A program made the translations under genes and the position numbers. DNA of 64,000 bases from Eledone cirrhosa (Eukaryota): contig OZ024754.1 of the NCBI GenBank assembly GCA_964016885.1, forward strand, positions 17,980,001-18,044,000, given 5' to 3'. The notes beneath the pieces were generated by a model. The model searched no databases. It saw only the letters and a program-made list of their open reading frames with translations, and had not been told where the DNA came from. Every line of letters starts with the position of its first letter. Positions within the stretch are counted from its first letter, which is position 1. Of this stretch, positions 19,536 through 58,710 are shown piece after piece.

Positions 19536-19751
19536 TTAAGGTTCGTCAGCATATGGGATACTTTCGGCACGGTTTAGCCATGGTTTACTGGGACATTCAT
19601 CCATTTCAGGAGAACTGGGAAGATTGTTTTTTTTTAATGGTCCAGAGCGTAATTGAAGAGATGGTAAGCTGGCAACAGACGGACGACTGCGTTTATCATA
19701 GCTGTCCAAGTGAGTATCTAAATCCATTTGAAAAGCGTTTACAACACGGAT
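19536..19751 (-). CDS. ATP2B: PMCA alternative last exon T3 (71 aa, ends ADEP)
   Basis: ttctgttttcag acceptor, then IRVVNAFQMDLDTHLDSYDKRSRPS...SIPYADEP-stop. Confidence 0.87.
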   Translation of the reverse strand: MRVVNAFQMDLDTHLDSYDKRSRPSVASLPSLQLRSGPLKKNNLPSSPEMDECPSKPWLNRAESIPYADEP

Positions 19752-19796
19752 CTGAAAACAGAATGATAACAATAAAAATAATAATGTGTATGTACG

Positions 19797-19847
<51 letters not shown>

Positions 19848-19952
19848 TAAAAAGATATTCTTTTAATGTAGAAAATAAATACTTAAAAAACCACATAGCA
19901 TAATGAAACACGACAAAATAAATTTTAACCATCTAAATATATATACTTGCCG

Positions 19953-19987
<35 letters not shown>

Positions 19988-20372
19988 AATGAAAAAAAAA
20001 AATCAAAATAAATGATAAAATTGACAGAAATGCCAATCAAATTGCAGTTATATATATTTTTTCATTTGAAATAAAATAAATATATACAATTATATACAAA
20101 TATATATATATATACATACATACACATATGTATACATATATATACACATACATATATATATACATACATACATATATATATACATACATATATACATACA
20201 TATACATACATATATACACACATATATATATATATATATATATAAAACAAGCGTAAAGTAAAATTATTGCAGATAAAATAAAGAAAATAAAACAACATTA
20301 TAGTCGTGCAGCATGCAAATGCTAGGCAATGAAAAAGCTGGCCCATGCAATGAACTGATAATCCTGGCTTAC

Positions 20373-20393
20373 GAAAGCCTTCCACGCCAGGTA
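20373..20393 (-). CDS. ATP2B: Candidate PMCA microexon (YLAWKAF)
   Basis: ttctccttcagcag|TACCTGGCGTGGAAGGCTTTC|gtaagc. 21 nt, phase 0-0, aligns with IRVVNAF. Two downstream TGCATG. No transcript evidence. Confidence 0.5.
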
Positions 20394-21602
20394 CTGCTGA
20401 AGGAGAATTTCTCATTACACATTGTAGATCCTATTTTATCACAATAATTAATTTCTTACATAGATTTTAAAGGGGCCCCAGATTTATGGAAGAGGGGGAA
20501 ATGAGTTAAGTGTGACATTGAGTACCTTTTGTTGTTTTTCTTTTTCAAAGGCAAAGGCAACTGATGTAAAGTGAAACTGTATCAACAGGGAATGAAAACA
20601 ATGTCATTGACTTGGCTCACCAGGAGTTTACTTCTACAGTATAGTGAACCACTGAGAACATTGAATAGATGACTATGATGATGATGATAAAATAATAAAA
20701 TTGATGGCTTCTTAATTAGATATGGTATTGAAACATTAATGTTTGAAAGGTCATGAGTAGTTGTGATCTTCAAGCGTTTCCCAAAATCACGGTTGATGTA
20801 AAGGAAATTGTTTTAATGTGGAATTGAAATTGAGTTGTAAACCAAAGTTTCTGAGAACTGTCGCACCTCATTAAACCCAAATTAACAATATCAATAATAA
20901 TAATAATAATTTTATAATTATTATTTAACCTTCAAATTAATTAATGTAAGTTGATAAAATTGACCTGAAATTTGTAGCTTTTTATAGGCAGAAAAATAAG
21001 AATTTTACTACCACTTAAAGTAACAATTGATGTAAGATGAAGTAGCTTCAGCTGTAGATTAAAACTGATTTGTCAATTGAACTCCCATATAATAATAATA
21101 ATGATAATGTTGATGATTGGCAGGTGTCAAATGTGAAAGAAAGGACTATAACTATAGTGTTGAACACTATATGATAATTACTTATTTTGTGGATCATTGG
21201 AGAGATGTAGGTCAAAGTCAACACCTGATCAAATTTGAACTCTCATTACTACTACAACTAATAATAATAGTGATGATGATAATACCCATTTTTACTAGTT
21301 ACAGCCACAGGGCTCTTTATAAGCACAACCATCACATCCTTCTTTCTAACTACATTAATGATACCTTTTTTTCTACTTACAACTATAGGCCTATGTGAGT
21401 AGGATAATGGTACCCTTGTTCCTAATTACAACTACGGGGTTATGTAACTAAAGGATTAAATGTTTGCATGGGACAGTTTCCAACTATTCAGTGAAAGGGA
21501 ATGGTTAAAGTTGATCTCTGTAGGATTCTTGAACTTTAAAGCCACGAGGTAAAAAAAATGGGAAATCAGCCCTTAATTTGAATCTTGTTGTAGCAACTCC
21601 CT

Positions 21603-21633
<31 letters not shown>

Positions 21634-22584
21634 GAAATAGCAAACATATGTTGTCAAAGCTGTTATTACAAAGTGATAAAGAATATTTAAAAATATATTT
21701 TAGAAAACTTTTGTGATACATAGCCAGAATAATCTAAATGTTCAATAATAATTCCAATGAGAGAGAGGATAAACTCACCTTAATTCTGAATCATATACAC
21801 CTAAATTAATTTAATGTATTTTGTCTACTAAATGTTTGGTGACTTGATTAAATAAAATACATAGCCAAATTTATTACATCTAAAATATTTATCTTATTTA
21901 TTTATAGAATAGTTTACATAATTTCCTGAGACATCTGAACTTAAAACTCTAAATATTAATCTAGAAATACAAGAAAACCTAAACATGTAAATATAATTTA
22001 ACTGTTAACACTAAAAACAGGTTTGTTATTTCAAATGTTTATAGTATCTTTACCAGTGGACAGAACTCTGTGATGCAGTCATAGCGCTGTTATGTAATGT
22101 GGTCTCATGTGGTACAGGATGGTAGTTGTTAATATACTCAACTATTAGGTTACTTTATTACATAATATGTGAATTTTTATCATAGTTACACCAGATATTA
22201 TAATGTGTTTATTAATAGAACAATACCATCTCTTGCAGGGACAATGGTTGGCTGTAGGAAAGCTTGAAGAAAGTGAACAACTAGTAGCTTTTTGTTGGTT
22301 AAGTGATTTACTGAAATAAATGGGGCTGCAATCCCCAAACTAAATATATTTTCTATAAACATGTTATGGTACCTATAAACATGTTATGGTACCAATTTTA
22401 TAGGGCTCCTATTTAAATTATAACTTTCCAGAACAATTTTATAAAAGACTCACATGTTAAATATCTTTTCCACAGACTCTGAGCAGTAACAGCGTTACAA
22501 TATAAACTACTCACCATTTAATTTCAAAGACAGTATTATCATAAATCTGTGATCTTGCATAAAGTTTCATTGTATCTTATTAAT

Positions 22585-22700
22585 AATTGTTTCTACTTTT
22601 GGCACAATGCCAGCAATTATCCCAGTGCATTACTGGCACTTTATTTTATCGACCCCGTAGAGATGAAAGGCAAAGTTAACCTTGGCGGGATTTCAACTAA
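22585..22700 (-). mobile_element. SINE fragment (related copies ~18108-18197, ~53345-53490)
   Basis: Shared ggcacaa.gccagcaatta.cccagtgcattactgg.actttatttt...gatgaaaggcaaa. Confidence 0.6.
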
Positions 22701-25700
22701 TACATATTTACCTTGTTGAGAGAAGTCTTAACTGAATTTTTGCTTGATCTAATTAACATTTTGTGTATCTTAGTTACAATTAGATTAGAAAAATGTCTAG
22801 TTGCAAAAGAATAATTTTTTATAAGATTTATTAACTTTTAATCATCTAAAACTCTATAACAGATGTAAGTAGATTTTATAATTCAAAAGACGTAATATTT
22901 GAATTAGATCTTGGATGGTAAATGAGTGAGAAATGGAAAAGAAAAGGAAATCAGAAGTAACAGAACTAAACTTTCCCAAGGTGAGGAATTTTAGGCAGAT
23001 ATTGTTAGATAATTTAAGCAAGATAACTTGTCAGGGGAACTGACCCTCTCAATTATACAGGAAGCATATAGTAGAAATATGAGATTGAGAAGAAAAAAAA
23101 AAGAAAAGGAAAAGAAAAAGGAAAAGAAAAAAGAAGAAAAAACAAAGCTCAGAGAATTTCCATTAAACTATAATGAAAATGTTTAACCATTGAAGTCAAT
23201 TTAACATATAGTAAGTAAAAAGTCTTTGGTAATAGCAGGCAGGTAAGATTAAGACTTTCTTTTTTTTGCCTTTAAAAAGTTTCATTCCAAAAGATAAAAT
23301 AAGAAATGTTTAACTTTATGAAAATATGAAATGTCAAGCATTGAAGAAATATACTGAATAGAAACTGAAGTTAATTGTAAAGATAAATAGATTGAAGTAG
23401 ATAGAAGGTGTTGAAAGTCATTCTTATTTTTGATATTAAATTTATCTGTAGATACCGGAGGAGATTATTATACCTTGTGATTGAAGAAACCTAAGCATCA
23501 TGCAGATATTTTACATATCATATTGGTTATTAAGTTGATAAGTTTTGCCATTAAAACAATGTGGAAGTTGTTTTTATTTGAAATTTGCTAGTATATATGC
23601 GTGTGTGAATGTTTGTGTGTGGCTATAAGGATATGATAACTGATAACCAAAGACCAGTTTAAGAAGCTGAAGGACGCTTGATAAAGTGCCAGACTCTAAC
23701 CCACTGCGATGATGAAGTTGGTTGTCTGATGTGCAAAAGATATGCAAAAGCTAGAACTAGCAGATAAAAATGGTTAAATGGTAATTAGCATCTATGAAGA
23801 CAGTTCAAAGCAAGAAGATTAAAATATTTTTTTTGTTACATCTGCAGATAATGAAGACCAATTTAGAAACCTAAAATGATAAAAGAGAAATGGTTATTGA
23901 AAAAACCAGACATAAATTCATCTAAAATTAGAAATCTAAAATGTAAATAAATATGGGATGAGAACTGAGAACAGCTTTTTAGGGATAATTTAAAATTTGA
24001 ATAATGATTTGAAATTTATTGATCTTACCAAAGAATCAATAATTTGGGTTTTTTGAATTGGTATTGATCATAATAGACAATATAATGTCTAAAATTATTC
24101 AAAACGAAAGTATCAGGATTACAAAAAAAAAAATGAAAAAAAAAAAAAAAATGAAAGAAAAAAGTATATATATTTTTTCTTCTAATTAAAAAGAGAAACA
24201 ATTATTGGGTTTATAAATATAATTTTACATCATTTATCATAAAAATCTAATGTTTGTCTTTGGTAGGGTAGAAATAAGATAGAGGAAAAGAAAAAGAATT
24301 TGATTTTTAAAAGACAAAGCAGAGTGAATTGTATGGGAGAAAGCAAAAGTGAATGAGAGGAGAGAGAGTACTAAGAGTGGTTGTAGGAAATATGAAGCAC
24401 TTTGTTTGGAAAAACACATTTAAATAAATGTTTTTAAATTTCTTTTGTGTAAAGAATTTATTGGGGCAAGTGTCAAGTAATTTTTCATAAAACAACTGTT
24501 TAAAAGTCTTCTAGAAGAAGGAATGAGATTCTGATAATTATGAACATTTGCAAATTAAGAATTTGCAGAAAAGTCAAGATACTGAAAGTATAGAGAATAT
24601 TTAAAACCCTTCAAACTAATTATATAATGGATTGGATTTTTAGTTTGACAACAAACAAAATAAAGCTTAAAAATCATTTAGAGAATAGAAATGAATACAT
24701 ATTGAAAACTTGAACACAACTTTAAATACAACACTGATGGTTGGGGTTAACGGCAGACAGGATGAGAGAGAGAAAGAGAGAGAGGTGCATATAAACAATT
24801 TGGTGCTTGGGACTGAGAGAGTTTCTTGCCAACAATGAATAGCAGCAGATGTAAGGCCTGCAAGTGCTCATTTGTTGATACATTGGTTAGAATAATGTAT
24901 ATCTGAATGGAAGAAAGCAGCAAGATGGGTTGAGTTGCTCATCAAAGAGCAGAGAAGAAGGGTTAAAGACAAGTTAGAAAAAAGAGAAGAAAAAAAAGTA
25001 GAATAAAAAAAAAAAAAAAAAAAGGCAGAAGAAGGATACAATCATGCTACATAGGTAAGTAGGTGGGTAAGTAGAGTCAGCTTGTTTGGACAAGGAAAGT
25101 TTCACCATTATGACAGAACTGGCTCCACAATGTTTCCAATATTTGCTGTTGTATTCTCTCTGGTTGCAAATGTCACCTTAGTTCTTGGGAAAAGATGTTG
25201 TAAGAGATTTGGGCAGATTTCTTTAATTCCAATGTATTCCTGGTTCATATCCAAAGCTCGATGAAATCCATGATGCATGAAGTAAATGAAGCAGTATGTG
25301 TATATAAAATTCACTTTTTTTAACATTTCCTCTTACACAGAACAATTCTCAATGACTTTTGTTTTTTTTTTAATCTTCAAATATACATTTTAAAAAATTT
25401 ACTTCCAAGTAGGCGGATATAAATTGCTATTTATAAAGACAACTTTGCCAGTCAGGAGTTCTGTAAGATTCTAAAAATTATTTTGTGCAGAAAATAAATA
25501 TTTTAAAACAATAGCAATAATGTCATATATTTCAATAAAAATGAACCCAAATATCATGTTGGTTGGGGATTTCAGTGATCATTTTTCAAAACAGGAATTG
25601 AATGAAACATTGTTATCAAAATGATTTTAAAAAAAAAACAAAAAAAAAACACCCCACCCACCAAAAAAAATCTATATTGTGAATATTTAATTTTTTTAGA

Positions 25701-26295
25701 CTTAATCCTGTCCACCCAGAAACAACCTTCCCTAACCCAAATAAAATACAGCACAGTTCTATTGATATTGCTGATAATAATAAAAAACAAAACAACAAAA
25801 CAGCCTTATTGCTATTTATTTATTTATTTATTTTCTCACAAAATAAAACAAAGACATTTCAATATTTTTCCAGGTCCTTTTGTAAAGTTAGAAGTTTTAG
25901 AATGTGCACACACATACACACACACACATATGTATGAATGCAATCCTAAGAGCTTACAAGACTTTTAGAAATATCTTAAAATAGTTTAGATTGATCTAAA
26001 ATTTGGTAAGTTTTAAGAAATAATTTATGAAAATATACCAAAATAATAAAAAAAAATTTTCAACTCAAATAATTGATTCTAAAATGATATTTATAGATAT
26101 TGCCAAACAAATTAAAACCAAATTAATATTCATAGTTTCAGTAAATTTTAAAATATATTTTCTCAAAATATTATTTTAGCTATTTTCCTTTGTTGTACTA
26201 ATTCTAGATTGAAGAGTATTAACTGAATTTTTAGTTTATGAAACAGCAGTTACTCATAAAACCATTTCTTTATTGTTACCAAGCTTTAGACCAGA

Positions 26296-26333
<38 letters not shown>

Positions 26334-27395
26334 ACTGAATCTATGTTAATATCAACTCACAATGTCATCCACTGCATGTTCTGTATAATTTTGCTGAGTT
26401 AAAAGCAATGCTTCACGCCAGTGATACTGAATCAATTACACCAAGAATTTAATCATTATTCGTGAAGATTTCAGTAAGAAGCATTTTTCTCCTTGATTTT
26501 CCCGTGTTATCCTAACAATTTTAATGTTGAAATTGTGTAGGTCAAGGAAAATTGTTTGTTTTGATTAAGCCACGCCAATACATGCACTCCCTATATTAAA
26601 TACTTTAGTTAATTTCAACAGTAAATATATTGGTTATAACTTGCTCCACATATTCTTACAGAAATAAATCTAGAAAGTTATAACAATTTATGTTATAACT
26701 GGGATGATATGAATCAGCGGAGAAAGAAAATGGTATTTCACCAATAAGACAAGCAGGAGAATTTCCATAAAACTTTTGTCATTGTAAGAAAACACAACTT
26801 CAGTATTCAAAATCTGATACACCGGCTTTTAATTTTATTTTCCTTTCTTTCTTTTGAAATACACACAGCCAGATTACATCTCATCAATGTCGTTTTATTT
26901 CAGGATATTTATATATATGTATGTATATATATAGGTGTATATATTTTATCAGTAAATAACTGAAGACTGGTGTTAATAAGCTCAATGAATGCAAGATGAT
27001 ATTAACAGTATTTAGTAATTCAGGATTAGTAATTAGGAAAAAAAAAAAAAAAAAAATGAAAATTAAAAATAAATAAAAGCTGTTATTTTAACAACTACAA
27101 ACAATAACAAAATACTACAGGTCAAACGTTTTTATTCATAAAAACGATAAACAATGCTGAGAACAAAACAGTTGTTGGTACAAAACCTACAGTTAAATAA
27201 CCAATCAATCTTTAAGAACTGCAGATGACCTAGTCATCTCACCTTTTTCTTCCATTATTTGCCTCATTGCTGATACAGATTTTTTTTTTTAAGTCAATGA
27301 CTGTTTGTGTATGGTGATAGAGAGATAGGATAAAGTGCAGCTAGAACATGTAAGCTCAAGAAAACATACATCCAGAGAGCTAGCTGGCATCCTAC

Positions 27396-27431
<36 letters not shown>

Positions 27432-29044
27432 ACTGATCTGAGATAAGAATGAGAGCATACCAAAGATTTGAATTTTTTCCCCGTGACAATGAAATTATAG
27501 CAGTCAGTTAATATTGATATGCTCCGAAAACTGCCAGTACATGAATACTAATAATAGCAAGATTAAAATTTCTTGCAGAGTAAGCTATTTTAAAGTCAGT
27601 TTTAATGATATTTTAAAAAGTTATTTAGTTTTATAATTATCTGTTGATTTAAGATAATGAAACTATTACTTTATTTTAAAGGAATAAATACAGTTCATTA
27701 AAATTTTTTTTGTTTTGCATTTATTTATTTTTCTGAATGTAAATTTAGTAAAATGTGAATCAAACTGTATGTTTGGTGTTAGTCAATATTTGTCACAATA
27801 GAAACACAGGAAACCTGTTCAGTATCTAACAGCACAGCCAATAACTGCAGTCATACTTCAAGACACTCACTAGTTGTTTAAGATTAATCCATTCCAATAA
27901 CTGACACACCCAATGATGGTGTCCATAACATATCCCACTACAAAATGGTTTTGCATTTGTACCTTTTTTTTTTGTATTTTTTAAAGAGAGATTTTCAAAA
28001 TTTACATTTGAATAATTACAAAAATGTTTCTTCTAAAATCAATTAATCATTTCTAGTTCCATTTATTTCATTTTAAAGATCATTTTGTACATAAAACTTG
28101 AAGTTAAAAAAATGATTTTTTTTTGGGTTGTTTTCCATAATTTTATTTTTCATAAATTTTCCACTCAGAGAGGAAAAAATTTGTGTAAAAACTTTTCTCC
28201 ATTTTTCAATTTTTAAAGGTTAATTTTAATTTCAACCGCACATTTGAGACAATTAGCCTTTAGTTAAAGAAAAATATAAAATGAACAAAGCAGTAGGTGT
28301 TTTGTATGGGCAATTGCACACACACACACACTTCCTGTACATACAGAAAATGAAAGTAGACGGTATAAAGATGATGTAAAAATTACTGAAAATCTTTATA
28401 CTGATTAAACATAATGAAAAGTTAAGTATGGCAGCAATCATAAACACATCTGCACACATGCTTCTAACTTCAAGTATGACAGTCAAATAAGAACAAGGTT
28501 TTGGTTTATTTTTTTTTTTAATCTTAAAATTTATAATTTAAAACATTTCAAAACTTAAAGGGAAGGGTTTTGATTATAAAAAGGAGCAAACTAACAGTGA
28601 AAATGTACGTGCCTCAGCCCAACTGATTGGAAGAAATTTGAAAATTTGGGGGTATATGTAATAAATTTTTTTTTAATCCTACTAGATATGTATATTGGCT
28701 TGATATCAATATCAACTAAATTATCTTTGTGGGGATGTAGTTTTCAAAGATATACTGCATTCAGTAAATGGTTTTCATATCTAGAGTAAGATTAGTTTTC
28801 ACAGCAGGAACTGGCACCAGATCAGTGATATTAGGGAAAGGTACTTCTACACTGCACAGTTTCAGCAATATAAAACAAGCTCAGAACCCAAGTTCTAAAT
28901 GAATAAGGATATTTAAACAATAATAAGATGAATAGCAAATGATACAAAATGAAGGGATTGTGACAGTGACACTTCCAACAGCAGCTCTTGCAGTGCCCGT
29001 TTCTATACTACCAGGGCATAGTCCAAAATAGTGCAGTAACATGC

Positions 29045-29221
29045 TCACATTACTGTGTCTATGATCTGGTTGGTGCTAGCAGACCCTTCGATGCGTGGGC
29101 TCACTGGAAATTTGTACCTCATCCTAAGGTTTTCAAGTGATTGGGAACTATAGTTCGAGGACAGACTATGCCCCTCGTAACGCGCATCTAATGCCATGCG
29201 GAAAGCATTAACAACACGAAT
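29045..29221 (-). CDS. ATP2B: PMCA alternative last exon T2 (58 aa, ends DTVM)
   Basis: cctgtttttcag acceptor, then IRVVNAFRMALDARYEGHS...QIIDTVM-stop. Confidence 0.88.
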   Translation of the reverse strand: MRVVNAFRMALDARYEGHSLSSNYSSQSLENLRMRYKFPVSPRIEGSASTNQIIDTVM

Positions 29222-30332
29222 CTGAAAAACAGGAAAGAAACCAAAAACAAAACGAAAACAAAGGTGGGAGTGATCAAGCACAAAGGGTAAACAACATTGC
29301 AGCATTCACTAATAATTTAAATAAATAAAAGGATAAGGTTTTACAACAACAAAACTGACTAAACCTAGTGCAGTACTAACAACAATACTATGTGAACTAG
29401 TATGACACACATTTGCAAGTTTGACTTCTAAGCAATGATAATTATATTTTCTCAAACTGGAAAAAAAAAAGGCAAGAGCAAGGAAAAAAGTGAATTAAAT
29501 TTAAAAAAAAAACAAAAAAGACATTTAATAGCAACATCAGCTAGGTAAAAAAAATAATATATATATATATTAAAAAAAAACAAACTTGGGTTAAATATGA
29601 ACATAAATACCATGCAGGGAAGAGTACCAGAGGGTCATGGAAAGAAAATTGTTGACAAAAACACACCACCTTCACATGGGATTATCACAACACAGCTGGT
29701 AAATGTTTCATTAAGAGCAGTGAAGTGGTAGGTTTTATGTTAGAGGTTAGTGAAGAATTAAGTAACAAGGTATTCTACTGTTATATATATCAGACTAAAA
29801 GTTAGACACTATTCACAGGAGTCCATCCACTGATGGGGAAAAATTGGGAGTAATAATAATAAGAATAAAAAAAAAAGATACATTTAAAATTGAATTGAAC
29901 GAAATAATAAAAAAGATAAAGAAAAAAAGAGGAACTTATGAAAGAAAATATAAAAAGGTGCACTGCACCAGAAGCTTGTGTGAATAATCTATTATCCTTT
30001 GATCAAAATGATGACACCCCAAAAAAGTCAAATCCAGTTTGACCTTTGGTTTCTGTGGTCCCTTCAACAGTTTTTATTTATTTATTTTTTTTTTTAAACA
30101 AGTTTCACTTGGTAGCATTTGGAATATGTTTGAGGTGATTGGATCAGTGGCAATATAAAGCTACTGGATCTTTCTATCACCTCGAAGAGATGCTCATTAT
30201 CAGAGTCTTTCCTTCATTTATTAAACACCATCATCAATTACTCTCCGCTAACTGGATCCATTAGGGGGGGAAAAAAATCACACAGTAAAGGTTTTTCCAC
30301 TTTTTTTCTTTTTGTTAACAAATGAGAAACTA

Positions 30333-30728
30333 CTAAATTGAAGTCTCATGAATATTTGTGTTGGCAATGTCAGACTGACTGAAGGTCTTTGTCGGAGACT
30401 TTTTGCGGGTTTGGTTAACAGGCGCCAGTATGGGTGATGGTTGCTTAGCAACCAGAGGAACATTTTCAAATGACTGGCTTTTTGTCTTGAATGGCTGATG
30501 ATCAAGTGGAGTTATTGGAGTGGAGACAATTTCTGGGGTGTTAAGGTACAGGTTTTCTGGTGGACTTGATCGTAAATGGTGGTCATGGTGATAAGCTTCT
30601 TCACTTATGGGCCGAGGCCCAGGGTGGCTACGCGAACTACGTATGCTGTGTAAACTGTGGAAACTGTGAATGCTACGTTTTTCCTCAAGGTCTTCCAAAG
30701 TACTCTTAAACGCTCGCACTACCCGAAG
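30333..30728 (-). CDS. ATP2B: PMCA alternative last exon T1 (131 aa, ends ETSI)
   Basis: ttctgttgacag acceptor, then LRVVRAFKSTLEDLEEKRSIHSFHSLHSIRSSRSHPG...NIHETSI-stop. Completes the CaM-binding helix. The end resembles the ETSL/ETSV PDZ ligands of vertebrate b-type PMCAs. Confidence 0.9.
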   Translation of the reverse strand, partial: LRVVRAFKSTLEDLEEKRSIHSFHSLHSIRSSRSHPGPRPISEEAYHHDHHLRSSPPENLYLNTPEIVSTPITPLDHQPFKTKSQSFENVPLVAKQPSPILAPVNQTRKKSPTKTFSQSDIANTNIHETSI

Positions 30729-33583
30729 CTGTCAACAGAAGAAAATTAGTCAGCTATTTAGGTTAACATCTCAATGACAGCAGTAGTAGTAGCAGTAAAA
30801 AACTTAACAACTGAGGACTGTTCAAAGTTATCCATTTTTGATGGACCCTAACTTTTTTCCAGATGGCATTTCAAATTAGCCATGAATAAGTGGGATGTAA
30901 TAATTGGTAGGGAATAATGAATGGTAACTACAAATAAAAATGATACATCAGTTTTCTTGAAACATCATTAAAAGAAGGGAGTAGACAAATACTATTTACA
31001 AATACTAAAGATTCATCTATGTTTAGTAACTAACAAAATAGATATTTTTGCTTAAATGTTTCATTTAAACTTTAAAATATTTAAAAACTATTTTAATTAC
31101 ATATAATCACAGAAATTTAAAAAACAAAACACATCTAATTTTAGCCTTAGCATATCAGTACCATGGCTTTCGAAAGATTTAAAAATAATATGTGGCTAAC
31201 GTTAAACTTATTTTGAGTATTAAATATATATACAAATTACTGTTTTCTACAAATATCTCTCATTTCTTTCAGATTATTGGAATTTTAAGTTAAGGTTTAA
31301 GTAAATTTAATATGTTTAGCTGCATAGTGATAAGGAAAATTTTAATGTCACAATAATTCTACCAAACACATCTTTCTTCTGATATGAAGTTAATATATCT
31401 TGTGGAAATTTTAACTTCCTTCTACCAAACAAAGCTGTAACTATTCTGAACTACCACTTAAAACTGTCTTCACATACAAGATTTAATAAATTTTCTTAAT
31501 CTTGGTAATTTGTACAGCAAATTCCACTTAAATAATGTAAAAAAAAAAAAACCTCAACAAATGCCAACTTTTATTAAATTGTCATCTAATTTTGAAAGTG
31601 ATTTCAACAAATATAAAATCAAGACAAGCTATTTCATGTGAGTATGAAAGATTAGCAGCTAAATCTATAGATCCACAAAAATAACAGAAACTAGAAAAAC
31701 TTGATTATAAAACTAAGGCAAAGATTGTCATCAAAATCTTCAGTTAGAATCAGAATCAATAAAAAACATTTTTCTTTTAAATTATGAAGGGACTTAAATG
31801 CTAAATAATATTTTAAGTAAAAAGGAACACATACACTCCCAGTGAAGAATAAAACAAAGTACAACACAAAAATGAACCGGTTGGAAAAATATTAAATTTG
31901 ATAGATAGCATTTACATTACTCTATATATACTATTATATTTTCATGATAAAGGCTTTACCTCACATAATTATCTCGCATAATATCGAATCTGTGAAATTT
32001 TGATATTATTTATTTTGGGAACAATACCTTAACATCAGTATGAGCGGCTGGTTACAGCTGGTTTGAACAGAAAGAGCTGAGAGAATTCTGGCCGGATATA
32101 CCGGTTTAAATGCTAAAAGATTAAAAGTTGATTATATAAAATTGTATTTGGTAATCAACACTATTTTGCTTGGGTAAAATTTGAAGAAAACTTAGCATTA
32201 AATCATTTTGTAATCTAAATTTTGATTTCATTCAAAGCCTTCATAGAATTGTATTTTTCAAGATAAAACCATGTCAAGTTTAGTATTCTATTTGATAAAT
32301 ATATTCTTATGTTCTGAAATTAAAAAAAAAAGTTTTAAGTTGTATGATTTTGAGAGTTCATGAGAGATAAATTCTGTAGAATTAAAGCTCAAATTTAAAG
32401 ATTTAAAGTATATATTAAAGTAACTAAGCAATAATTATCTCTTTTTTAAAAACTGATTCATGTTCTCTCCTCATATTCTTCAGTCCGTGCTTCGACCTAA
32501 AACTACTAAATTGTATGCCATTTATTGACAACCCCACATTTCATTAAGTCCAACTGCACTGTGAACAATGGACCGCACTAGTATCAAGATTTCTCATCAT
32601 TCCCCTAATCTAATTAAATCTGAAACAGCAGTTTCTCCTCCTCTTCTTCTTCATCATCATCATCATCATTGATTGCCAACATCAAATCAACCTCTCATCA
32701 TCAGCTATCATGTTGTTGAAATGAACCACAAGCTTTCCAAAATGGCTGAATGAATACACACGTGTTTTTCCGTTCCTTCCTCTTCTCAATTTCTATCTTT
32801 CTATTTCATCTTTTATTTCTCATTCTATCTTCTGATAAATGAGTAGTGTCCGAAATATTAAAACTTTTCCTATTATACAAAGCATTAAACTATATTTCTT
32901 CATTGTACTGTGTTGTTTGCTTTGTTATTTCTGTTTATACCCCCCCCCCCCTCTCATGCATGCATTCTCTTTCCATTTACCCGTGTTACAGGTCAGTTAT
33001 TTTAGGTCTCCTTAGTAGTAAGGGACATATTGACTTAACACATGCTGACGATCCATAAGGCTGAATTGGTCTCCTCACTAATTTAGAGTGAAACATTCTC
33101 CTAGTGAGTCTGTATATGTGTGATTTTGTTAAAAGGTGGGTCATTTCATTTTAATTTATCCTTTTAATTATAATGTATTTCCCAAACCTTTTGTAGTTTA
33201 TATGTTTTTCATGCCAGTGGTAATATACCCCCTGTAAATGAAAACACATACACCTGTGTTTTTCCTCTCTATATTGTATTTTGAAGTGCCCAGGAATTTT
33301 TTCCTTTGAGCTCATTAAATTACAGGGATGAACGCGAGTCCTTTACTCTGTGGCTTTACTTGATATATATATATACTTAATATATATATATATATATATA
33401 TTAATATTATAGTTATAACATCAATGGTATACTGATTTACAGGTTGATCTGTAGCTCAATGCAGTAGGAGTCGTGCAGAGCTGTTATACATTAACATTTA
33501 AATGACACCAAAGATATAAACATTTTAAAACTAAATGCTTTAATCTTTGGTGTCATTCAAATTTTAATGTTTGTATGTGTGTG

Positions 33584-33630
<47 letters not shown>

Positions 33631-34599
33631 TCACACAAATATGAAATAGTTTTGAAGGAGTATGTGGTTATATTAATAGAGAATTGGAAGAAGAGTTTAG
33701 TTATTTATGAATGTGGATGAACTCCAAGAGAGGAAATAGCTCTAGTAAAATGATATTTATTATTATTATCATTAGACTCACAAATTAATATAAGGAATAA
33801 CAAAATGTTAGTTATTAGAATGTTAGTTATTAGAATATACAATTTGCAAAGAAATCTTTAAGCTGAAATATTTTTTGGAATGGTTCATGGTTTTGTTTTT
33901 CTTGCTAAGGAGTGTATGTTTAGTTATTATTTTTCTAGCCTTTTATTACATTTTTTCTCTCGCTTTTATATAGGAAACATCAGATAGAGATTTGAATAAA
34001 AGATAACCGGCTAAGCTGTAGCGAGGATTGAAAAAAAAAACAACAAATAAATCTTTCGTAATATTATTATAATAATTCCCTGTTTACAAATGGTTAAATG
34101 GAACAAGATAAGATTGGCATAATAACTATTGGTTTTATCGTTAGATAATGGGAGGGGATTTGAAAATATATATCGATTTGCTCACCACCACTGCAACCCT
34201 AAGTAGAATGAATAATTCTAGGTGTTGGGACAAGGTTAGACAAAGTTGAAGATACAGTTAAATAAAAAAAATATATATATATATTATTTTGAATTTTGCA
34301 CAAATGCTGCAATGGTTACAAATAAGAACCAGTTCCTGAAGAATTAATTGTTAACTAAATCATTAATATCAGTAATAATATTGCAATGTGTGGAAACTCT
34401 AATTAAATTGACGTCCCTCTTCCCAACAACTCTAGTCTTTCTTCATGTACATTTCGGGACAACTGCAGCATTGTAAGAGGTCTAAGGAAAAACAATTGAA
34501 AAGAATGTTTCCTTTTATAAGAAATTGTTTATCATAATTTAGATGTTTATTGTACGTCTTTTCCTTCACTGCTTGGGAAATACACATATATACGTGTAT

Positions 34600-35665
<1,066 letters not shown>

Positions 35666-36401
35666 TTTGTTTTTATTCATTGAAACCATGCCTGAACAGC
35701 ATGGTATTTTAGAAGCAGTTAAGGAAAACAACTGGTCATAAAAATCTAAACTATAATTGATAGTGTACCTAATCATTTCTGCTTTGTTTTTTTTTCCATC
35801 AAAACTTTTTTTTTACACAACATACGTAAAAATGTGAATATATTGATTATGTTTATGAAGCAGACTTAAATTCATATATAGCGACCATGTCATTTGTGAG
35901 GGTAAAAAGAAAAAAAAAATCATAATAAAAATGGTTGGAATAATCAGCCAATAAACCTTCAAAGTGATGAGACAGCACATTTTTGGTTGAGAGTTCAAAG
36001 GAACAGTTCCGTAAGTGATTGTGTACTGTCAGGAGTAAATTTTTAAAATGACCAGAGAACAGATTTGGACAACAAATTTTGGCAATAAAATAGGAAGCAT
36101 TCAAAAGATAACAGGTTAAGTCATGCAACATTACCAACAGTTTCCAGGATGAAAAAAATCAAATGATAAATTGGCAAACAAGGAGCCAAAAATGGTATGA
36201 AAATATATTGAGAGAGATATAGCGAAGTGTAACCATACGGAAAAAAGAATGAACAAATATGAAGTATTAGGATTTCGCTCGACAAAACCCAGTAGCTAAG
36301 AACTGTATCAAATAATATATCTTGGTACCAGAAGTTGTAAATGATTAAAAAAGAGAAAAGGAGAGATATAGAGGGGAAAAGAGAATGAGAGAGGTAAATA
36401 T

Positions 36402-36432
<31 letters not shown>

Positions 36433-38594
36433 GAAATAATGAGGAGGGTTGGGTAAAGATAGCAGATTAAAAATAACTGACTGAACTGATGGCCTTTTAT
36501 TGGTTATCACCAGAATAGATCAGAAAATCTTGTGAAAACATATAAAAGAGAAATTCAAATATATTTGCAATAAATAATATACATTCAATGAAAAACTAAA
36601 ATAACTTAGTTTTTAGACATTTCAGTAAATTATAGCTTGAATTTAGTGACTTGCAAAATGAGAAAGAATTAGATGAAGCCTATATACATATATATATGCA
36701 GAGAGTGCATATATATATGAATATGCACACACAGACACACACACACTTGTACACATATATGTATGCATGTGTGTGTGTGTGGCAGTGTGAGTGTGTGAGT
36801 GTATATGTGGTGTGTGCGTGGTGTATGCATATGTATATGTATCTGTGTGTGAGTGTGTAAAAGACTAACTGAATAATTATTTGTGATGTAATAGATTATA
36901 CCTTCACTGAAAACAAAAGAGGAACTGAAATTGGAAATACTTCTTACTAAACATTGAGCAGGAAAGAATGGTTAAGTCTGAAAGCCAATTTCTTGTTGAA
37001 GCTGAAGAGAATTGAAATTAAAGAAAAAGTAAAAAAAGTGAAAGAAAACAAATCTCCTTAAAGAATATTTTTTCTTTCAGTGAAAAAGGAAGAACTGGAC
37101 ATACCAGTACAAATGGAGCATTGCTAAAAACGGTCTCCTCGATGAAAGGCAGTCAAAGAATTGCCAATTTTATGATTATAGATAGAGCAACTTAATTATA
37201 TTTCAGGTAAAAGAAAAGAAAAGAAAACAAAAAATATTTTGTTCTGCAAATTTTAACTGCAATAAATTTTACTTTGATTAGAAAAATTATTATTCGATTC
37301 ATTCACACATTCACAAATTCATTCAAATTAAAAAAATATTTTTTCCATTAAAAAAACCCAAAAAACTTATTGTTATTTTTTCAAAAAGAAACTTGTGTTT
37401 AATATATTTCGAAAATAATGTTGGTGATAAATTCATGTATTGTTGGAAATGATACAAATATACAGTTGGGTGGTTACTTTTGTTCATGCCGTCTGTTTTA
37501 GTTTAGAAAGAGATTGTAAAAAAATATTGTGTTTTCTTTGCAATATAATATTAGTTAAGTAAAATGGCAAAAGTGTTTTTTATTATGTTAGCGTAATTTT
37601 TTTTCTCAATGTATATCTGAGCTACATTTAAAGGTAGGGACAGAAAGCTAGCATTGTTGTCACTGTGTTAAAATAAAATAGCTTTATAATTGCAATATCA
37701 AATCTACCATTTATAAATATTATTTCCTCAGAAATTCTAATTCTTAATATAAATATATGAATACTTATGAAATTGTGTGTGTATGAATGTGTGGTTTAAA
37801 TATCAAGTTAGTTTGCTGCTGCTCCTTCCTTTTACACTAGATTATTTCTGATCAAAGTTTCTAATATTTAATGAAAAGTTTTTAAAAATATATTATTTAA
37901 GCTGTGGCTAATAAATATTTTATATTATATAAGCCTAAGTCTGATTAAAGACAGAATTCAACATCTCAGGGTCTAAAATTAAGAGCTAAGTAAGTAGAAA
38001 AAAAAAAGTCAAGGTTCTCAAGGGAATATTCCCTTTCCCCCAAAAATGGTTATAAGTTTGAACAGTGACTCAAAAGATAACATTTCAAAATAAAAAGGGA
38101 CAAAGGAGGAGTAAGTGGTTACAGTTTTAAAATCATTAGTTTCAAAATGCAGCAACTCTCATAGTAAAATATTAGTATCATAAAACAACAACTTTAAAAC
38201 CTTTTTTAGTGGGCCAGCTCCCACTAGTTAAAAAGAAAAAAAATTGAAGAAATTAAGTAAAAGCAATTCATTTATTTGAAAATGACTACAAAAAAAAGAG
38301 TTCAAACATGCTTAATCTATGATAGAAAAGAAACAGAAAAACAAACAGAAATGTAGAGAAAGGTTCAGGATAAACACATGAAATGTTAGTGTTGAGGACA
38401 TTGACTGCCTTTGTGATTTCTATAATATATATATTTATGAGATGGTACTAGTTAAGACTAGTAAAACCTGTACAAGACAGAATACCTGCTGATCAAGTTT
38501 AAACTGTTTCGATGGCCGAATGGAAAATTAATCCAAATTAATTTCACATTTTGTCATTGCAATGGTTTAAGCTTGATTGTTGAGCATTCTGCCC

Positions 38595-38661
<67 letters not shown>

Positions 38662-38945
38662 ATAAGATGTTGCTAATCAAAAGACTAGTAAGACCATTAT
38701 TCAACGTAGCAGTCAATACATTAAAAGAAAGTAGAGAGCAGATGTTATTTAATACATGTAAAATTGACAGCCTAGCCTAAACTGTTTCAAAGTCTTCCAT
38801 TCAACCATCAAAATGATTTAAGCTTCACTGTTGGTTTACATGTATTATATATATAATATATATGTATGTATTATATATATATATGTGTTATGTATATTAT
38901 ATATATATATATGTATTATATATATATAATATATATATGTATTAT

Positions 38946-39034
<89 letters not shown>

Positions 39035-39090
39035 GTAATATATAATATATATACAAATTATATATATATATAATGTATATATGAATTATA

Positions 39091-39128
<38 letters not shown>

Positions 39129-39336
39129 TATGAATTATATATATATAATATATAAATCTATCTATATATATATCTACATATATATAATATATATATATAC
39201 ATATATATAATATATATATATCTATCTATATATATATAATATATATCTATCTATATATATATATAATATATATCTATATATATATCTATCTATATATATA
39301 TAATATATATCTATATATATATATAATATCTATCTA

Positions 39337-39368
<32 letters not shown>

Positions 39369-39389
39369 ATATATATATCTATCTATATA

Positions 39390-40221
39390 CGAGGTGTGTC
39401 AGAAAAGTTCCAGGACTGATGTCACAAAAGATTTATTTCAATCCCAAACTTCACACTAAGAGTTTTCCCCTTCAAAGTAATCCCCCTGGAGTATGTAACT
39501 GTAATCTTAGCTCTCTGCAGTGATCAAACTCTGTTTCAGGTCGTCAAGCAATGAGCACAGAGCAATGAACAAACTTGAAGTTTCTGGTACGGTTGGGGAA
39601 AACTCCATCAGAAACACTGGGATTGCTGCAGCAAGTGTATGGAGATGAGACGATGTCATGCTCACGTGTTTTTGAGTGGTGCAAGATGACCCCCAGGAGC
39701 GGAAGGCCCTCAACAACCAGGACTGAGGTCAACATTGAACGCGTCAGGCAGATGGTGCGTAGCGATCGTCGGCTGACTGTTCGACTGATGGCAAATGAGC
39801 TGGGCATGAATTGGGACACCGTCTGGAAGATTCTCAATCAAGATTTGGACATGCGGAAAGTCTGTGCAAAGATGGTGCCAAAACTGCTGAATGATGACCA
39901 GAAGGGTCGATGCATGCAAGTGTGTCTTGAAACCGAACCAGACTTGCTAGGGACAGTCATCACCGATGATGAGTAATGGATCTTCGAGTACAACCCGGAG
40001 GGGACCCGTTTTGAAGACGTGGACGACATCAAAAAGGTTGTGATGACGGAACTGTGGAGAATCCCGGAAGAATCCTTCCAGGAGTGCATGCAAGCATGGC
40101 AGAAAAGGATGGAAAAGTGCATTAGACTCCAGGGGTTGAAGGAGAAAACCCTTAGTGTGAAGTTTGGGTTTGAAATAAATCTTTTGTGACATCAGTCCTG
40201 GAACTTTTCTGGCACACCTCG
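39390..40221 (+). mobile_element. Internally deleted Tc1/mariner (mariner-type) DNA transposon
   Basis: TA on both sides. ~85-bp TIRs (cgaggtgtgtcagaaaagttccaggactgatgtcac... / ...gtgacatcagtcctggaacttttctggcacacctcg). ORF 39575-39976 has the HTH region, RSGRP, KMVPKLL and a TDDE first-Asp motif. Most of the catalytic core is missing, while the C-terminal remnant (GTRFEDVDDIKK...MEKCIRLQG) is kept. Confidence 0.93.
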
Positions 40222-40256
<35 letters not shown>

Positions 40257-40266
40257 TATATATATA

Positions 40267-41818
40267 TCATCATCATCATTTTACGCCCGCTTTTCCCTGT
40301 TTGTAAGGGAGGGACAGATCTTATCCAGCACAGCATCTCTGCACTTGCCATGGTCCTTCGTCATCTCAACCGTGAGCTTCAGCGATCTGAGATCTGTTCT
40401 CACCACCTCCGCCCATGTTTTTCGTGGTCTACCTCTACCACGTCTTCCTTCAACTAGCATTTCCTGGCACTTCTTCACCCATCGGTCATCCTCCATGCGC
40501 ATCACATGTCAATACCACCGCAGTCTCCTCTCCCACACACTACATTCTATCCTTCTCAGACACAGTTTCTCTCTCAACACATCCATGCTGGGTCGTTCAC
40601 GCACATTGACATTGCACATCCAACGGAGCATGCTTTCCTCATTTCTCTCCAGCTGTCGCAAATCCTCTGCAGTTGCTGCCTGTGTCTCACTACCATACAG
40701 CATCGTGCTCCTCACACAGGCATCATATAACCGGCCTTTCGTACGCAGGAGAAACCCTCCTTCGTCAGCAGAGGAAGCAGCTCCCTAAACTTCTTCCAGC
40801 CCGTCCTTATTCTAGATACTATGGCCTCGGAACACCCCCACCCCTCCCATGCTAATCTGATCTCCTAGCTACTGGAAGCTATCCACCACTTCTATAGCAC
40901 CCGCCTGCATTTGAAAAATGTGTCTATCAATGCGACTTCTACTGTCTAATTTCCCTGTAAATCTACTGCATACGTATTTCTCCCTACCTGTTAGTTTGCC
41001 TGCTATCCCACTACATCTCTTGTGTACCCAGGATCTGCATTGTGTGCATTTTATAGAATTTATGCCAGTTCCTTTTCTGCATATCGAACATGGCCATTTC
41101 CCTGACAGAATCAGAGTTTTGTCCTCTTTTCTACTTATCAACACTTTTGTCTTAGCTAGGTTCACTCTCAGTCCTCTTGCTGGAATACAATGAACAAGAG
41201 CGGGCTGAGGACTGAACCTTGATGTACTCCTAATTGTATCTGGAATTCCTCACTAAACTCCATTCCTACCTTGACTTTACTGACAGTACCTCTGTACAAA
41301 GTTTGCACTGTCCTCACAAGCCATTCCTCAAAACCTAGTTTCCTTAGGGACCACCAGATGACAGATCGGGGTACCCTATCAAAGGCCTTCTCTAGGTCAA
41401 CAAAGGCTAAGTATAGTGGCTTATTCTTCTCTAAGAACCTCTCTTGTAATTGTCTCACCAAGAAGAGGGCATCTGTTGTACTTTCCCCAGGCACAAAACC
41501 AAACTGCATCTCATCTAGTTTGACCCTTTCTCTAATTAGTTGTGATAATATCCTTTCTGCCACTTTCAGAACCTGATCCATCAGTTTTATACCCCTATAA
41601 TTGCTCCTCTCCAGAGCATCCCCTTTACCTTTGTAGCAATTATGAGAATACTGCTGTACCAGTCTTTGGGCATGACACCACCATATATAGCCTGATTGAT
41701 GATGCATGCAACCAGTTTAGTGCCTACGTCCCCTGATGCCTTCAGCATCGCAGCAACTATTCCCGATGGCCCAGCAGCCTTACCATTTTTCATTTCCTTA
41801 ATCGCCTCTTGGACCCTA
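40267..41818 (-). mobile_element. 5'-truncated, decayed RTE-clade LINE
   Basis: Broken RT frames (KAAGPSGI, NYRGIKL, QFGFVPG, AFVDLEKAFDRVPR, GVHQGSVLSPLLF), a WPCSICRKG...WVHKRCSG Cys/His domain, RRLRWY, GRRGRGRPRKTW and a (GAT)n tail. A deletion near 41170 removes the YADD region. Confidence 0.93.
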
Positions 41819-42124
41819 TATAATATATATATAATATATATATATATATGTGTGTATATATATATAATATATATATATGTAATATATATATAACATATAT
41901 ATAAATAATACATATATATTATATGTATATATATATAACATATATATAAATAATATATATATATATACTATATATATAGAATTATATATATAATATATAT
42001 ATAAATAATATATATATATAACATATATATAAATAATACATATAAAATAATATATATATACTATATACATATATATATAATACATATAAAATAATATATA
42101 TATACTATATACATATATATATAT

Positions 42125-42434
42125 ATATTTATTAAAATAACAGATTAAAGTTTAAGCAAAGAATCGCTGCTTTCACCCTTAACGGGATCTTCTGAAACTA
42201 ACAAAGTCAATCTGTAAACGCAGAACTGGATATTTCAAAAAACGTTGCAACGGAAGGAAGACAGGAAGACGATACTTTGGTTCGTGGAAACCTTCCTGTC
42301 TTCCTCCGGTTGCAACGTTTTTTGAAATATTCACTTCTGCGTTCACAGATTGACTTTGTTAGTTTCAGAAGATCCCGTTAAGGGTGAAAGCAGCGATTCT
42401 TTGCTTAAACTTTAATCTGTTATTTTAATAAATA
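42125..42434. repeat. Fold-back element (~140-bp arms); shorter family member at 17498-17737
   Basis: aaagaatcgctgctttcacccttaacgggatcttctgaaactaacaaagtcaatc... mirrored by ...gattgactttgttagtttcagaagatcccgttaagggtgaaagcagcgattcttt. Confidence 0.92.
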
Positions 42435-42642
42435 TTTGCTCTACGGTTCTTATATATTTGATATATATTTATCCTTATCGAGCCCTCTTTGGATTTTAGT
42501 CTTCAAATTTATTATTATTACTATATATATATATATATAAATATATAAATAATATATATATACTATATATATAAATATATAAATATATATATTTATAATA
42601 TATATATATTTAGCTATGTAATAAACAACATAAGATAATTAT

Positions 42643-42698
42643 TTCATATACCAGTGGTTTCTTGAAGACAGATGTATGTTTTCAGTCGTCAGAATGAA
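42643..42698 (-). ncRNA. Hammerhead ribozyme motif, inverted more degenerate sister copy
   Basis: Minus strand ttcatt-CTGACGA-ctgaaaacatacatctgtcttcaa-GAAA-ccactgg-TA-tatgaa. Mismatches in stem II and next to the cleavage site. Confidence 0.6.
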
Positions 42699-42931
42699 TA
42701 AAAAAAACATGGTGTTTTTATTAAATATGGATTTGAAAATAAAATCCAGGAAATATGAAAGTGAGGCTGAAAAAAACGGGCGAAAATAATATGTGTGTAT
42801 ATATATATATGTATATACATATCTTGTGTATTTGTTTATATTTAAGTTGTTTTTATTTTTTCTCCCCCACCCACACACTCACACCTATCGTTGTCAACAC
42901 GTCCCCCCTTCTTTTACTTTATTTTGTTTTT

Positions 42932-42967
<36 letters not shown>

Positions 42968-43204
42968 TCATCATTTCATTTTACGCCCGCTTTTCCCTGC
43001 TTACAAGGGTGGGACGGGAACTGATTCTGGCTTGATTTCTACAGCTGGATGCCCTTCCTAACACCAACCTCATTTACAGTGAGTGGTGGATGCTTTTTTT
43101 CCGTGGCGCCTACACGTCCACTTTACAGTGTGGGCTGGGTGCTTTTTTGCCGTGGCACCTCCACGACCACTTTGCAGTGGAATGATAGGGACCTCAGTCC
43201 TATC

Positions 43205-43323
43205 ATCTCATTTTTACAGCTGAGTAAACTGGAGCAATGTGAAATAAAGTGTCTTGCTCAAGGAAACAGCACATCACCCGGTCTGAGAATTGAACTCACA
43301 ACCTTTCGATTGCAAGGCCAATG

Positions 43324-43325
<2 letters not shown>
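43205..43325 (-). mobile_element. SINE fragment, same family as 51550-51830
   Basis: gaaataaagtgtcttgctcaagga...gaattgaactcacaacc is the reverse complement of the SINE head/core. Confidence 0.65.
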
Positions 43326-43389
<64 letters not shown>

Positions 43390-43742
43390 TTTTTTGTTCT
43401 TATTTATTTTTTTATTTAGTTATTTCTGCTTGCTTACTCCTTCCCAAATTTGAGTGTATATATCTGTGTATATGTATGTGTACGTATTTATGTTCCTGTC
43501 CATAATTCTTTGTAGACGCTAATACGTTTGTTTGAGTTTACGTCTACATACATTTTAGTATATCCGCGTAGTTGTGTGTATGTTTACGTTCTGGATATTT
43601 ATATTTTTATTCGTATATATATATATATATATATATATATTTTTTCCCTATTTCCTTTTCGCCAGTTTTTTTCAGCCTCACTTTCATATTTCCTAAATTT
43701 TATTTTCAAATCCATATTTAATAAAAACACCATGTTTTTTTA

Positions 43743-43803
43743 TTCATTCTGACGACTGAAGACAGATACAACATCTGTCTTCAAGAAACCACTGGTAAAT
43801 GAA
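43743..43803 (+). ncRNA. Minimal type-I hammerhead ribozyme motif
   Basis: ttcatt-CTGACGA-c-tgaagacagat/acaac/atctgtcttca-a-GAAA-ccactgg-TA-aatgaa: intact core boxes, 6-bp stem I, 11-bp stem II, short near-palindromic stem III. The stem II closing pair is C-A. Confidence 0.75.
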
Positions 43804-44049
43804 ATAATTATCTCATGTTGTTTATTATATAACTAATAAGCTCTGTAGCCTACATAGAGCACTTTTTTTCCTGTACCTTTCCGACGGAAATACTTCATTT
43901 ACTATATATATATATATATATATTTATAATATATATATACATATATAATATATATATTATATTAATCAATTAAAGAAAGTTGGTTGATTAAAAATCTGCC
44001 GACCTTTTCTTAACAGACTCCACATTTTTTTGTTCATCCGGAATTTTAT

Positions 44050-44240
44050 TATAATAATAAACAAGAAAGACGGTTTCATTTGTCCACCCCTATTTATTTT
44101 GTTATACGTATTTCAAAGATGTATGGTAGTTATATAACATCTTTACGTGTTGTCTGAAGAGAACCCGTAAGGCAGATGTTATCAAATACCATACGTCTTT
44201 GAAATACGTATAACAAAATAAATAGGTGTGGACAAATGAA
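44050..44240. repeat. Fold-back element (~70-bp arms)
   Basis: aaacaagaaagac.gtttcatttgtccac.cctatttattttgttatacgtatttcaaaga.gtatggta is mirrored at 44187-44237. Confidence 0.9.
44150..44216 (+). ncRNA. Possible degenerate hammerhead motif in a fold-back element
   Basis: ttgt-CTGAAGA-(40 nt, weak stem II)-GAAA-tacgta-TA-acaa. Stem III is palindromic. Confidence 0.4.
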
Positions 44241-44254
44241 ACAGTCTTTCTTGT

Positions 44255-44323
<69 letters not shown>

Positions 44324-44336
44324 CACATATATACAT

Positions 44337-44375
<39 letters not shown>

Positions 44376-46732: not shown

Positions 46733-47110
46733 TTAACGTGAAACCATCACACTGCTGTTTATACTTTTGAAGACTTTCTCATTAAACAGGACGTTAAGAG
46801 TTAAAAAACAACAACCAAAAAGCTAAATATTTCACTCTTATGTTTCTTCTTTAGTCCTGAAGTAGTCAAATGATTTGTTTAGTATGAAAGAGGATAAGAA
46901 AAAAAGATATTCTTAATGTGAAACCATCACACTGCTGTTTATACTTTTGAAGACTTTCTCATTAATGTGGTTTTATGTGGTACAGGACGTTAAGAGTTAA
47001 AAAACAACAACCAAAAAGCTAAATATTTCACTCTTATGTTTCTTCTTCAGTCCTGAAGTAGTCAAATGATTTGTTTAGTATGAAAGAGGATAAGAAAAAA
47101 AGATATTCTT
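46733..47110. repeat. ~180-bp direct tandem duplication
   Basis: gtgaaaccatcacactgctgtt...gaggataagaaaaaaagatattctt occurs twice, nearly identical. Confidence 0.9.
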
Positions 47111-53975: not shown

Positions 53976-54019
53976 CTAAAATGAATCAAGGGAGTATTAG
54001 TGTCAATTCAACAATTTAT

Positions 54020-56208: not shown

Positions 56209-56517
<309 letters not shown>

Positions 56518-58677: not shown

Positions 58678-58710
58678 CTAAAAGACAGGAAGAAAAAAAT
58701 AATTAAGATT

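Follow-up and report, generated by a model that had tools for sequence, protein, structure and literature searches.

Alternative splicing at site C, midway along the calmodulin (CaM)-binding domain, is known to divide the vertebrate calcium pumps PMCA1-4 (ATP2B1-4) into b forms, which carry a PDZ motif, and a forms, which do not (PMC8835232; this and the other papers cited here were consulted in part). The a forms are considered to act faster and under weaker autoinhibition (PMC8835232, PMC13464777). The C-termini of ATP2B1 and ATP2B4 have been listed as homologous exons (PMC4465641), the ATP2B1-4 event has been described as C-terminal, bilaterian and orthologous in Drosophila PMCA (PMC8373072), and PMC9741552 adds an event in C. 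elegans mca-3 as well as tissue specificity in human proteomics. In Ciona, the single gene Atp2b produces two variants, var.a and var.b, whose C-termini diverge at the CaM site, one of them being testis-enriched (PMC6226504). Here we analyzed 64,000 nucleotides of Eledone cirrhosa DNA (contig OZ024754.1, positions 17,980,001 to 18,044,000, called the window below), which hold the 3' half of a PMCA gene with three candidate end exons, T1, T2 and T3, downstream of an exon J. In our preferred reading, to which we give a probability of about 0.78, three old duplicated end exons complete the CaM-binding helix of this one gene; likely one of them is chosen at a time as an alternative last exon, and the choice is predicted to set the strength of autoinhibition and CaM switching as well as PDZ anchoring.

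The locus shares with vertebrate site C the splice position in the middle of the CaM domain, homologous exon heads, and a class I PDZ end on one product but not on another. Unlike in vertebrates, where the a form arises from a cassette before a shared b exon whose frame it shifts, the octopod gene has three stop-carrying exons, two PDZ-type ends and the b-like exon first. Insect and chelicerate PMCA genes have a T1-type exon (..HETSI) and a T2-type exon (IRVVNAFRQG..ETAV) both with PDZ-type ends, as an earlier note on this DNA had said for insects, and fused insect models show the same T1-T2 order; they differ in that no T3 was found in them and in their spacer exons between J and the heads, which are unmatched in the window. 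Ciona Atp2b differs from the octopod gene in its two variants, neither of which has a PDZ motif (PMC6226504). The published tandem duplicated exon substitution (PMC4465641, PMC8373072, PMC9741552) is the same C-terminal PMCA event, and the parts consulted name no mollusc PMCA, third exon or exon order; PMC13423992 and PMC12092002, in the parts consulted, touch fly and worm isoforms only. A literature search, with most subscription papers and supplementary figures outside its scope, returned no paper on mollusc PMCA C-terminal isoforms, and no three-way mollusc swap, PDZ-less charge-neutral T3 or b-like-exon-first order. What is known is a two-way C-terminal exon swap of PMCA, bilaterian and shared with fly, and what is undescribed in the literature found is the third, PDZ-less tail and the reversed order. 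The contrast with vertebrates drawn by the earlier note is weaker than claimed, since the literature already describes vertebrate a and b as a C-terminal substitution of duplicated exons that goes back to Bilateria.

By bit score, the P-type ATPase body of the gene is closest to PMCA (P2B ATPase, ATP2B): the O. vulgaris record gives 1088 and 1079 bits to PMCA2 and PMCA1, 514 to plant ACA8 and <250 to SERCA and Na,K pumps. Exon J ends in RGLTRLQQQ with a phase 0 donor, and its end holds the CaM-binding helix's first half, GQILWVRGLTRLQQQ, with the Trp anchor. The Pfam profile PF12424 is split at the J/T junction, J covering profile positions 1-15 (E 1.6e-5) and T1, T2 and T3 covering 17-44, 16-41 and 16-44 (E 0.018-0.057, each alone below the gathering score). 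The CaM-bound 2KNE peptide, which is anchored by W8 and F25 (PMC8835232), gives a gap-free alignment with J+T1; T2 and T3 have the Phe at the same position, and the Trp-Phe 1-18 anchor spacing is present in every J+T product. Each of the three exons has its own stop codon. Scanning 69,484 stop-free decamers on both strands of the window, 3,465 of them directly after AG, we found that the T1, T2 and T3 heads score 46-49 (self-matches included), whereas the best of the other decamers reaches 23 overall and 18 among those that follow an AG; the same scan found no fourth head-like exon on either strand, the J-T1 intron included. It is confirmed that three exons downstream of J each furnish the CaM-binding domain's second half, with the Phe anchor, followed by a tail and a stop, and the J end, the tail lengths and the C-terminal residues that the earlier note had given were confirmed at their coordinates (Table 1).

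Compared pairwise, the heads score 46-70, a level reached by 0-3 of 1000 shuffles. T2 and T3 have the same residues as far as the Phe anchor, and their first 12 codons comprise 6 identical, 4 synonymous and 2 non-synonymous ones. Past the head, only T2 versus T3 stands out within the window alone (12 of 1000 shuffles, against 110 and 367 in the other two pairs), and between mollusc classes tail residues 8-40 score 34-48 versus shuffle means of 18-22. The tails had been called unrelated; this holds only beyond about residue 35, and residues 8-40 lie above shuffle level. By these comparisons, T1, T2 and T3 are mutually homologous, adjacent exons, as in tandem duplicated exon substitution.

All three exons are conserved in relatives. 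T3 has 33 relatives among 51 candidates at 59-97% identity, and every species-named one (27 of 27) is a bivalve, gastropod or cephalopod; it is 97% identical to Argonauta hians and about 93% to another cephalopod record. T2 has 4 cephalopod-type relatives among 13 candidates, and T2-type tails occur in cluster members from Patella, Mytilus, Pomacea, Haliotis, Biomphalaria, Crassostrea, Dreissena, the nemertean Lineus, insects and chelicerates. T1, which is 100% identical to Octopus bimaculoides, has 138 relatives among 346, with molluscs, Lineus, Lingula and arthropods among the 120 matches listed. O. vulgaris annotations carry the T1, T2 and T3 tails on an identical 740-residue body (P0245, P0238, P0249), while Mytilus galloprovincialis, Haliotis cracherodii and H. 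rufescens each have all three tails as well, and Patella has them across two species. The tails follow one another as T1, T2, T3 in a fused Magallana model, and fused models from insects (P0211, P0147, P0166, P0187) place T1 before T2. Judged by this conservation, T1, T2 and T3 are real, old and functional exons, and T3 is better conserved across molluscs than T2; T1 and a T2-type exon are older than the mollusc-arthropod split.

Joining to J is seen for each exon in relatives. Full J+T1 (P0071) and J+T2 (P0037, P0069, P0070, P0072) are present in transcript-sized Logan contigs of 3.8-4.7 kb from cuttlefish-like cephalopods; J+T3 is present in an oyster-type 6.5-kb Logan contig (P0017) and in Tridacna P0022 (1,198 aa), a record of the same length as the cDNA cloned in PMC5641333. 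The situation in which a single exon is ever joined to J and the rest are unconserved is contradicted by the conservation of all three and by the transcript-derived records, at least one per exon, that show the joining to J. Of 386 proteins collected, a sample whose composition is biased by the queries used, 312 have the J motif, and it is followed by T1 in 161, T2 in 35, T3 in 75, a spacer and then a head in 19, no head in 18 and fused models in 4. T1, T2 and T3 isoforms are already in automatic mollusc annotations. Arthropod annotations (P0290, P0293, P0323, P0335, P0356 and others) place short spacer exons between J and the head, an arrangement that would move the two CaM anchors apart; searched against the window, these spacers and the odd mollusc endings gave head matches and short chance matches only.

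The three classes differ in their ends and in the charge of their heads, as the earlier note had proposed. A class I PDZ ligand has Ser or Thr at position -2 and a hydrophobic last residue, and in the pattern used here M, F and C were also accepted as the last residue. Such ends are found in 80 of 89 distinct T1 tails, 18 of 21 T2 tails and 2 of 34 T3 tails, the three T2 tails without one all coming from Mytilus. In the window, ETSI of T1 and DTVM of T2 fit the consensus and ADEP of T3 does not. The T2 end (29045-29062, minus strand) reads DTVM here, DTSV in Octopus and DTSI in Sepia, so that Thr at -2 and the hydrophobic end are kept amid drift in the remaining tail, suggesting that the motif is under selection. 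The net charge of the first 10 residues is +3 in T1 (88 of 89), +2 in T2 (21 of 21) and 0 in T3 (34 of 34), counts that are partly circular because the classes were defined by their heads; over 20 residues T3 has a net charge of -2 or -3. Free of this circularity are the Asp at T3 position 10 (34 of 34) and the counts of PDZ ends.

These differences bear on whether the tails would change CaM binding at all. With both anchors and the VV.AF core kept, CaM binding could be equal in the three forms and the tails could matter for localization or phosphorylation only, an account that concerns function and overlaps our preferred reading on anatomy. The identity of T2 and T3 up to the Phe anchor agrees with it, as does the Arg that T3 keeps at position 2, unlike the acidic residue of the four human a exons. 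However, position 8 (R/K versus Q across molluscs) and position 10 (the Asp of T3) differ by class, and both are within reach of the C28 peptide of 2KNE; we regard equal CaM binding as the less likely outcome, though one to be taken seriously.

According to the preferred reading, the J donor would pick the T1, T2 or T3 acceptor. Because each exon carries a stop, T2 and T3 would be reached only by skipping the preceding T exons, probably in competition with 3'-end formation. Among 1,625 YAG sites, the pyrimidine tract of T2 ranks in the top 1.4%, that of T3 in the top 4.4% and that of T1 in the top 16%; strong acceptors had been claimed for all three, and T2 and T3 keep this description while T1 is middling. 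As the weakest of the three, the T1 tract would make it possible for T1 to be skipped in favor of T2 or T3. If vertebrate site C is taken as the model, T1 (+3, ETSI) is predicted to give a b-like form that binds CaM tightly, is strongly autoinhibited and is anchored through PDZ scaffolds, T2 (+2) a short, PDZ-bearing, anchored form, and T3 (0, then acidic, no PDZ end) an a-like form with weaker CaM binding and autoinhibition and no PDZ tether.

Several points weigh against this reading, in addition to the circularity of the charge counts and to two points on the history of T3 given below. The differences in CaM affinity, activity and PDZ binding among T1, T2 and T3 are predictions by analogy. 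The transcript support for J-to-T joining comes from relatives, and the use of these junctions in E. cirrhosa and other octopods is deduced from them. AATAAA occurs 1.56 times per kb on the minus strand, so the hexamers behind each stop are uninformative. Some mollusc models (Haliotis, scallops, oysters, Dreissena) splice out of T3 into another ending. In P0002, a 4,842-nt Logan contig, a cephalopod T3 stands behind a purine-rich sequence that is neither J nor the intron in P0363, the genomic record of the same tail. Together with the splicing out of T3, this contig means that the term "last exon" may not always hold.

P0002 and the splicing out of T3 also speak for an account in which the exons, though real, are not terminal in every case, T1 and/or T2 being stop-carrying cassettes or sharing a 3' end (T1 mRNA running through T2 as untranslated region [UTR], or the T2 UTR being spliced to T3), which would be nearer to the vertebrate layout. 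The T1 stop lies merely 1.1 kb from the T2 acceptor, which also fits. On the other side, the coding part of T1 has no consensus-like donor; a donor-like site at the T2 stop needs a G that the Ile codon in the Sepia tail presumably cannot supply; about 200 nt 3' of the T2 stop are similar across cephalopods; and the 5' part of P0002 was not placed in the window, its best match being 25286-25254 (E 0.13). Stops far upstream of the last junction would moreover invite nonsense-mediated decay. We hold this layout to be improbable. As a separate matter, a Trp at the stop position in P0034, P0035, P0004 and P0011 was considered as RNA editing and rejected, these being intron-containing open reading frames (ORFs) in which TGA was most likely read as Trp.

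It could also be that octopods retain T3 in the genome but make little or no use of it, with the old T1/T2 pair serving as the working switch. Two observations that count against the three-way switch point in this direction: cephalopod J+T3 is found only in two genome annotations and in no transcript-derived record among the collected proteins, and T3 is absent from all 12 RefSeq isoforms (O. bimaculoides, O. sinensis) in a listing that covers 15 of the 28 members of the Octopus cluster. However, that isoform count covers just these 15 members, the acceptor of T3 is intact, and its identity to Argonauta and to the other cephalopod record is high; disuse of T3 appears very improbable to us.

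Against PMCA2 in its b form (9gsd), one and the same body scores 1103.1 bits with T1, 1088.8 with T2 and 1087.7 with T3, and this advantage of 14-15 bits is moderate evidence that T1 is the b-like exon. Against PMCA1 with an a head after J (6a69), T3 scores 1078.1 bits, T2 1075.1 and T1 1074.7, and only T3 aligns 18 residues further, matching VVNAFQ and R..PS(V/I)AS; the likeness of T3 to the vertebrate a exon is weak by this measure. The T1, T2 and T3 exons alone gave no PMCA match in the PDB, with none at E 10 for the T3 exon or profile. T3 starts with IR in 34 of 34 tails, without an acidic residue 2 (the IR start being part of the class definition), and it lies downstream of the b-like T1, thus not as a cassette upstream of a b exon like the vertebrate a. 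Human a exons begin with MD, IE, ME and ID, with an acidic residue 2 in each, and Gln follows the anchor in two of the four (PMC8373072 supplement). By the coordinates given there and the known strands of the human genes, a precedes b. Because the acidic residue 2 is missing and Gln is shared with two human a exons only, T3 is not filed as an a form here, though by analogy it may work like one.

The earlier note took T3 for a further duplicate. It is not a recent one, given its presence in bivalves, gastropods and cephalopods, and it may still derive from a T2-type exon. A head tree (45-residue heads; 60 rows by 47 columns) groups the T1 heads together (100/99) and, with lower support, the T3 heads (90/89); it leaves T2 unresolved and does not show where T3 originated. 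A T3 profile built from residue 17 on was tested on 25 of 32 lophotrochozoan T2-type tails and 25 of 113 T1 tails: 19 of the 25 T2-type tails, 8 of which had themselves been found with the T3 profile, score 9-24 bits (0 of 200 shuffles), and the 25 T1 tails score 4-10 bits. The six low T2-type rows are five cephalopod T2 and Dreissena. Since the profile prefers T2-type over T1 tails, T3 probably came from a T2-type exon early in molluscs, most likely before bivalves, gastropods and cephalopods separated. T3 was not found beyond molluscs in a profile search of 1.84 billion representatives, which gave 4 strong, mollusc-like T3-type matches and 19 weak ones, 15 of them T2-like and 4 to flanks only. 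P0366 was rejected as a T3, since its head is T3-like but groups with T2-like neighbors in the tree. The nemertean Lineus longissimus (P0284, P0287) has three tails too, owing to a separate duplication of the T2-type exon; its two T2-type exons pair with each other (100/99) and were rejected as a T2/T3 pair. The end motif SIxYAD occurs in 27 of 43 T3 tails, 8 of 8 insect T2 tails, 0 of 32 lophotrochozoan T2 tails and 0 of 113 T1 tails. The profile match of T3 to insect T2 is weak (hhalign P 0.011, probability 3.9%), and a T3-end likeness similar to the SIxYAD link was seen in one of five further T2-like tails.

Table 1. Features of the PMCA gene in the window (positions are those of the window)
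Feature	Position	Strand	Details
3' half of PMCA gene		minus, all exons	within the 64-kb window
Nine upstream PMCA coding exons, nucleotide-binding domain to transmembrane helix 10	52499..63462 (outer limits approximate)	-	tblastn
Exon J, 62 codons	51114..51299	-	acceptor TTTTAG/ATT, donor CAACAG/GTAAAT, phase 0
Intron J to T1, 20,385 nt	30729..51113	-	
T1, LRVVRAFKST..., 131 aa + stop, end ETSI	30333..30728	-	CAG directly before
T2, IRVVNAFRMA..., 58 aa + stop, end DTVM	29045..29221	-	CAG directly before
Non-coding stretch 3' of T2 stop, similar in other cephalopods	28834..29044	-	tblastn of read-through ORFs P0034, P0035
T3, IRVVNAFQMD..., 71 aa + stop, end PYADEP	19536..19751	-	CAG directly before

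The upstream exons are 80-100% identical per tblastn alignment segment to Octopus and Argonauta PMCA records, and the conserved stretch after the T2 stop is likely 3' UTR. An inverted copy (84%) of the acceptor and 5' part of one PMCA exon lies in an intron 2.3 kb downstream (60628-60750, plus strand, against 63104-62965, minus strand). The predicted duplex of this copy with the exon reaches -146 kcal/mol. Over 100 random stretches the mean is -40, and a single one, probably overlapping the copy or the exon, reached -145. Cephalopods are known for adenosine-to-inosine editing, and the copy is a possible editing or splice-masking partner in the pre-mRNA. PMCA introns also contain two broken reverse-transcriptase copies (60230-58848 and 41967-40284, minus strand) that are about 67-69% identical to each other and that we take, from their translated motifs, to be LINE-like. 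A tandem array at 9363-11239 has a period of about 64 bases and copies about 95% identical.

PMCA tails set the speed at which calcium spikes are cleared and the location of the pump. A bolder interpretation, which we find doubtful, sees in T3 the mollusc equivalent of the neuronal a tail of vertebrates (PDZ-less, weakly autoinhibiting and fast), so that one gene would hold a three-step switch of CaM control and anchoring, with an a-like tail retained for some 500 million years. As the b-like exon comes first in the octopod gene and last in vertebrates, the "one bilaterian event" would then really be repeated duplication with swapped roles, and the ancestral second exon would have been split between T2, with its head and PDZ end, and T3, with the SIxYAD motif shared with the insect second tail. 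The reversed order of the b-like exon serves as a check on the published single bilaterian origin. The J+T1, J+T2 and J+T3 peptides, with stepwise charge and identical anchors, offer a clean test of whether charge near the second anchor tunes CaM affinity and autoinhibition. Molluscs are a source of classic neuron models as well as shell builders, and the PMCA cloned from the shell-forming mantle of the giant clam (P0022) carries T3, so that the choice of tail in a tissue bears on both the mollusc neuron and the shell fields.

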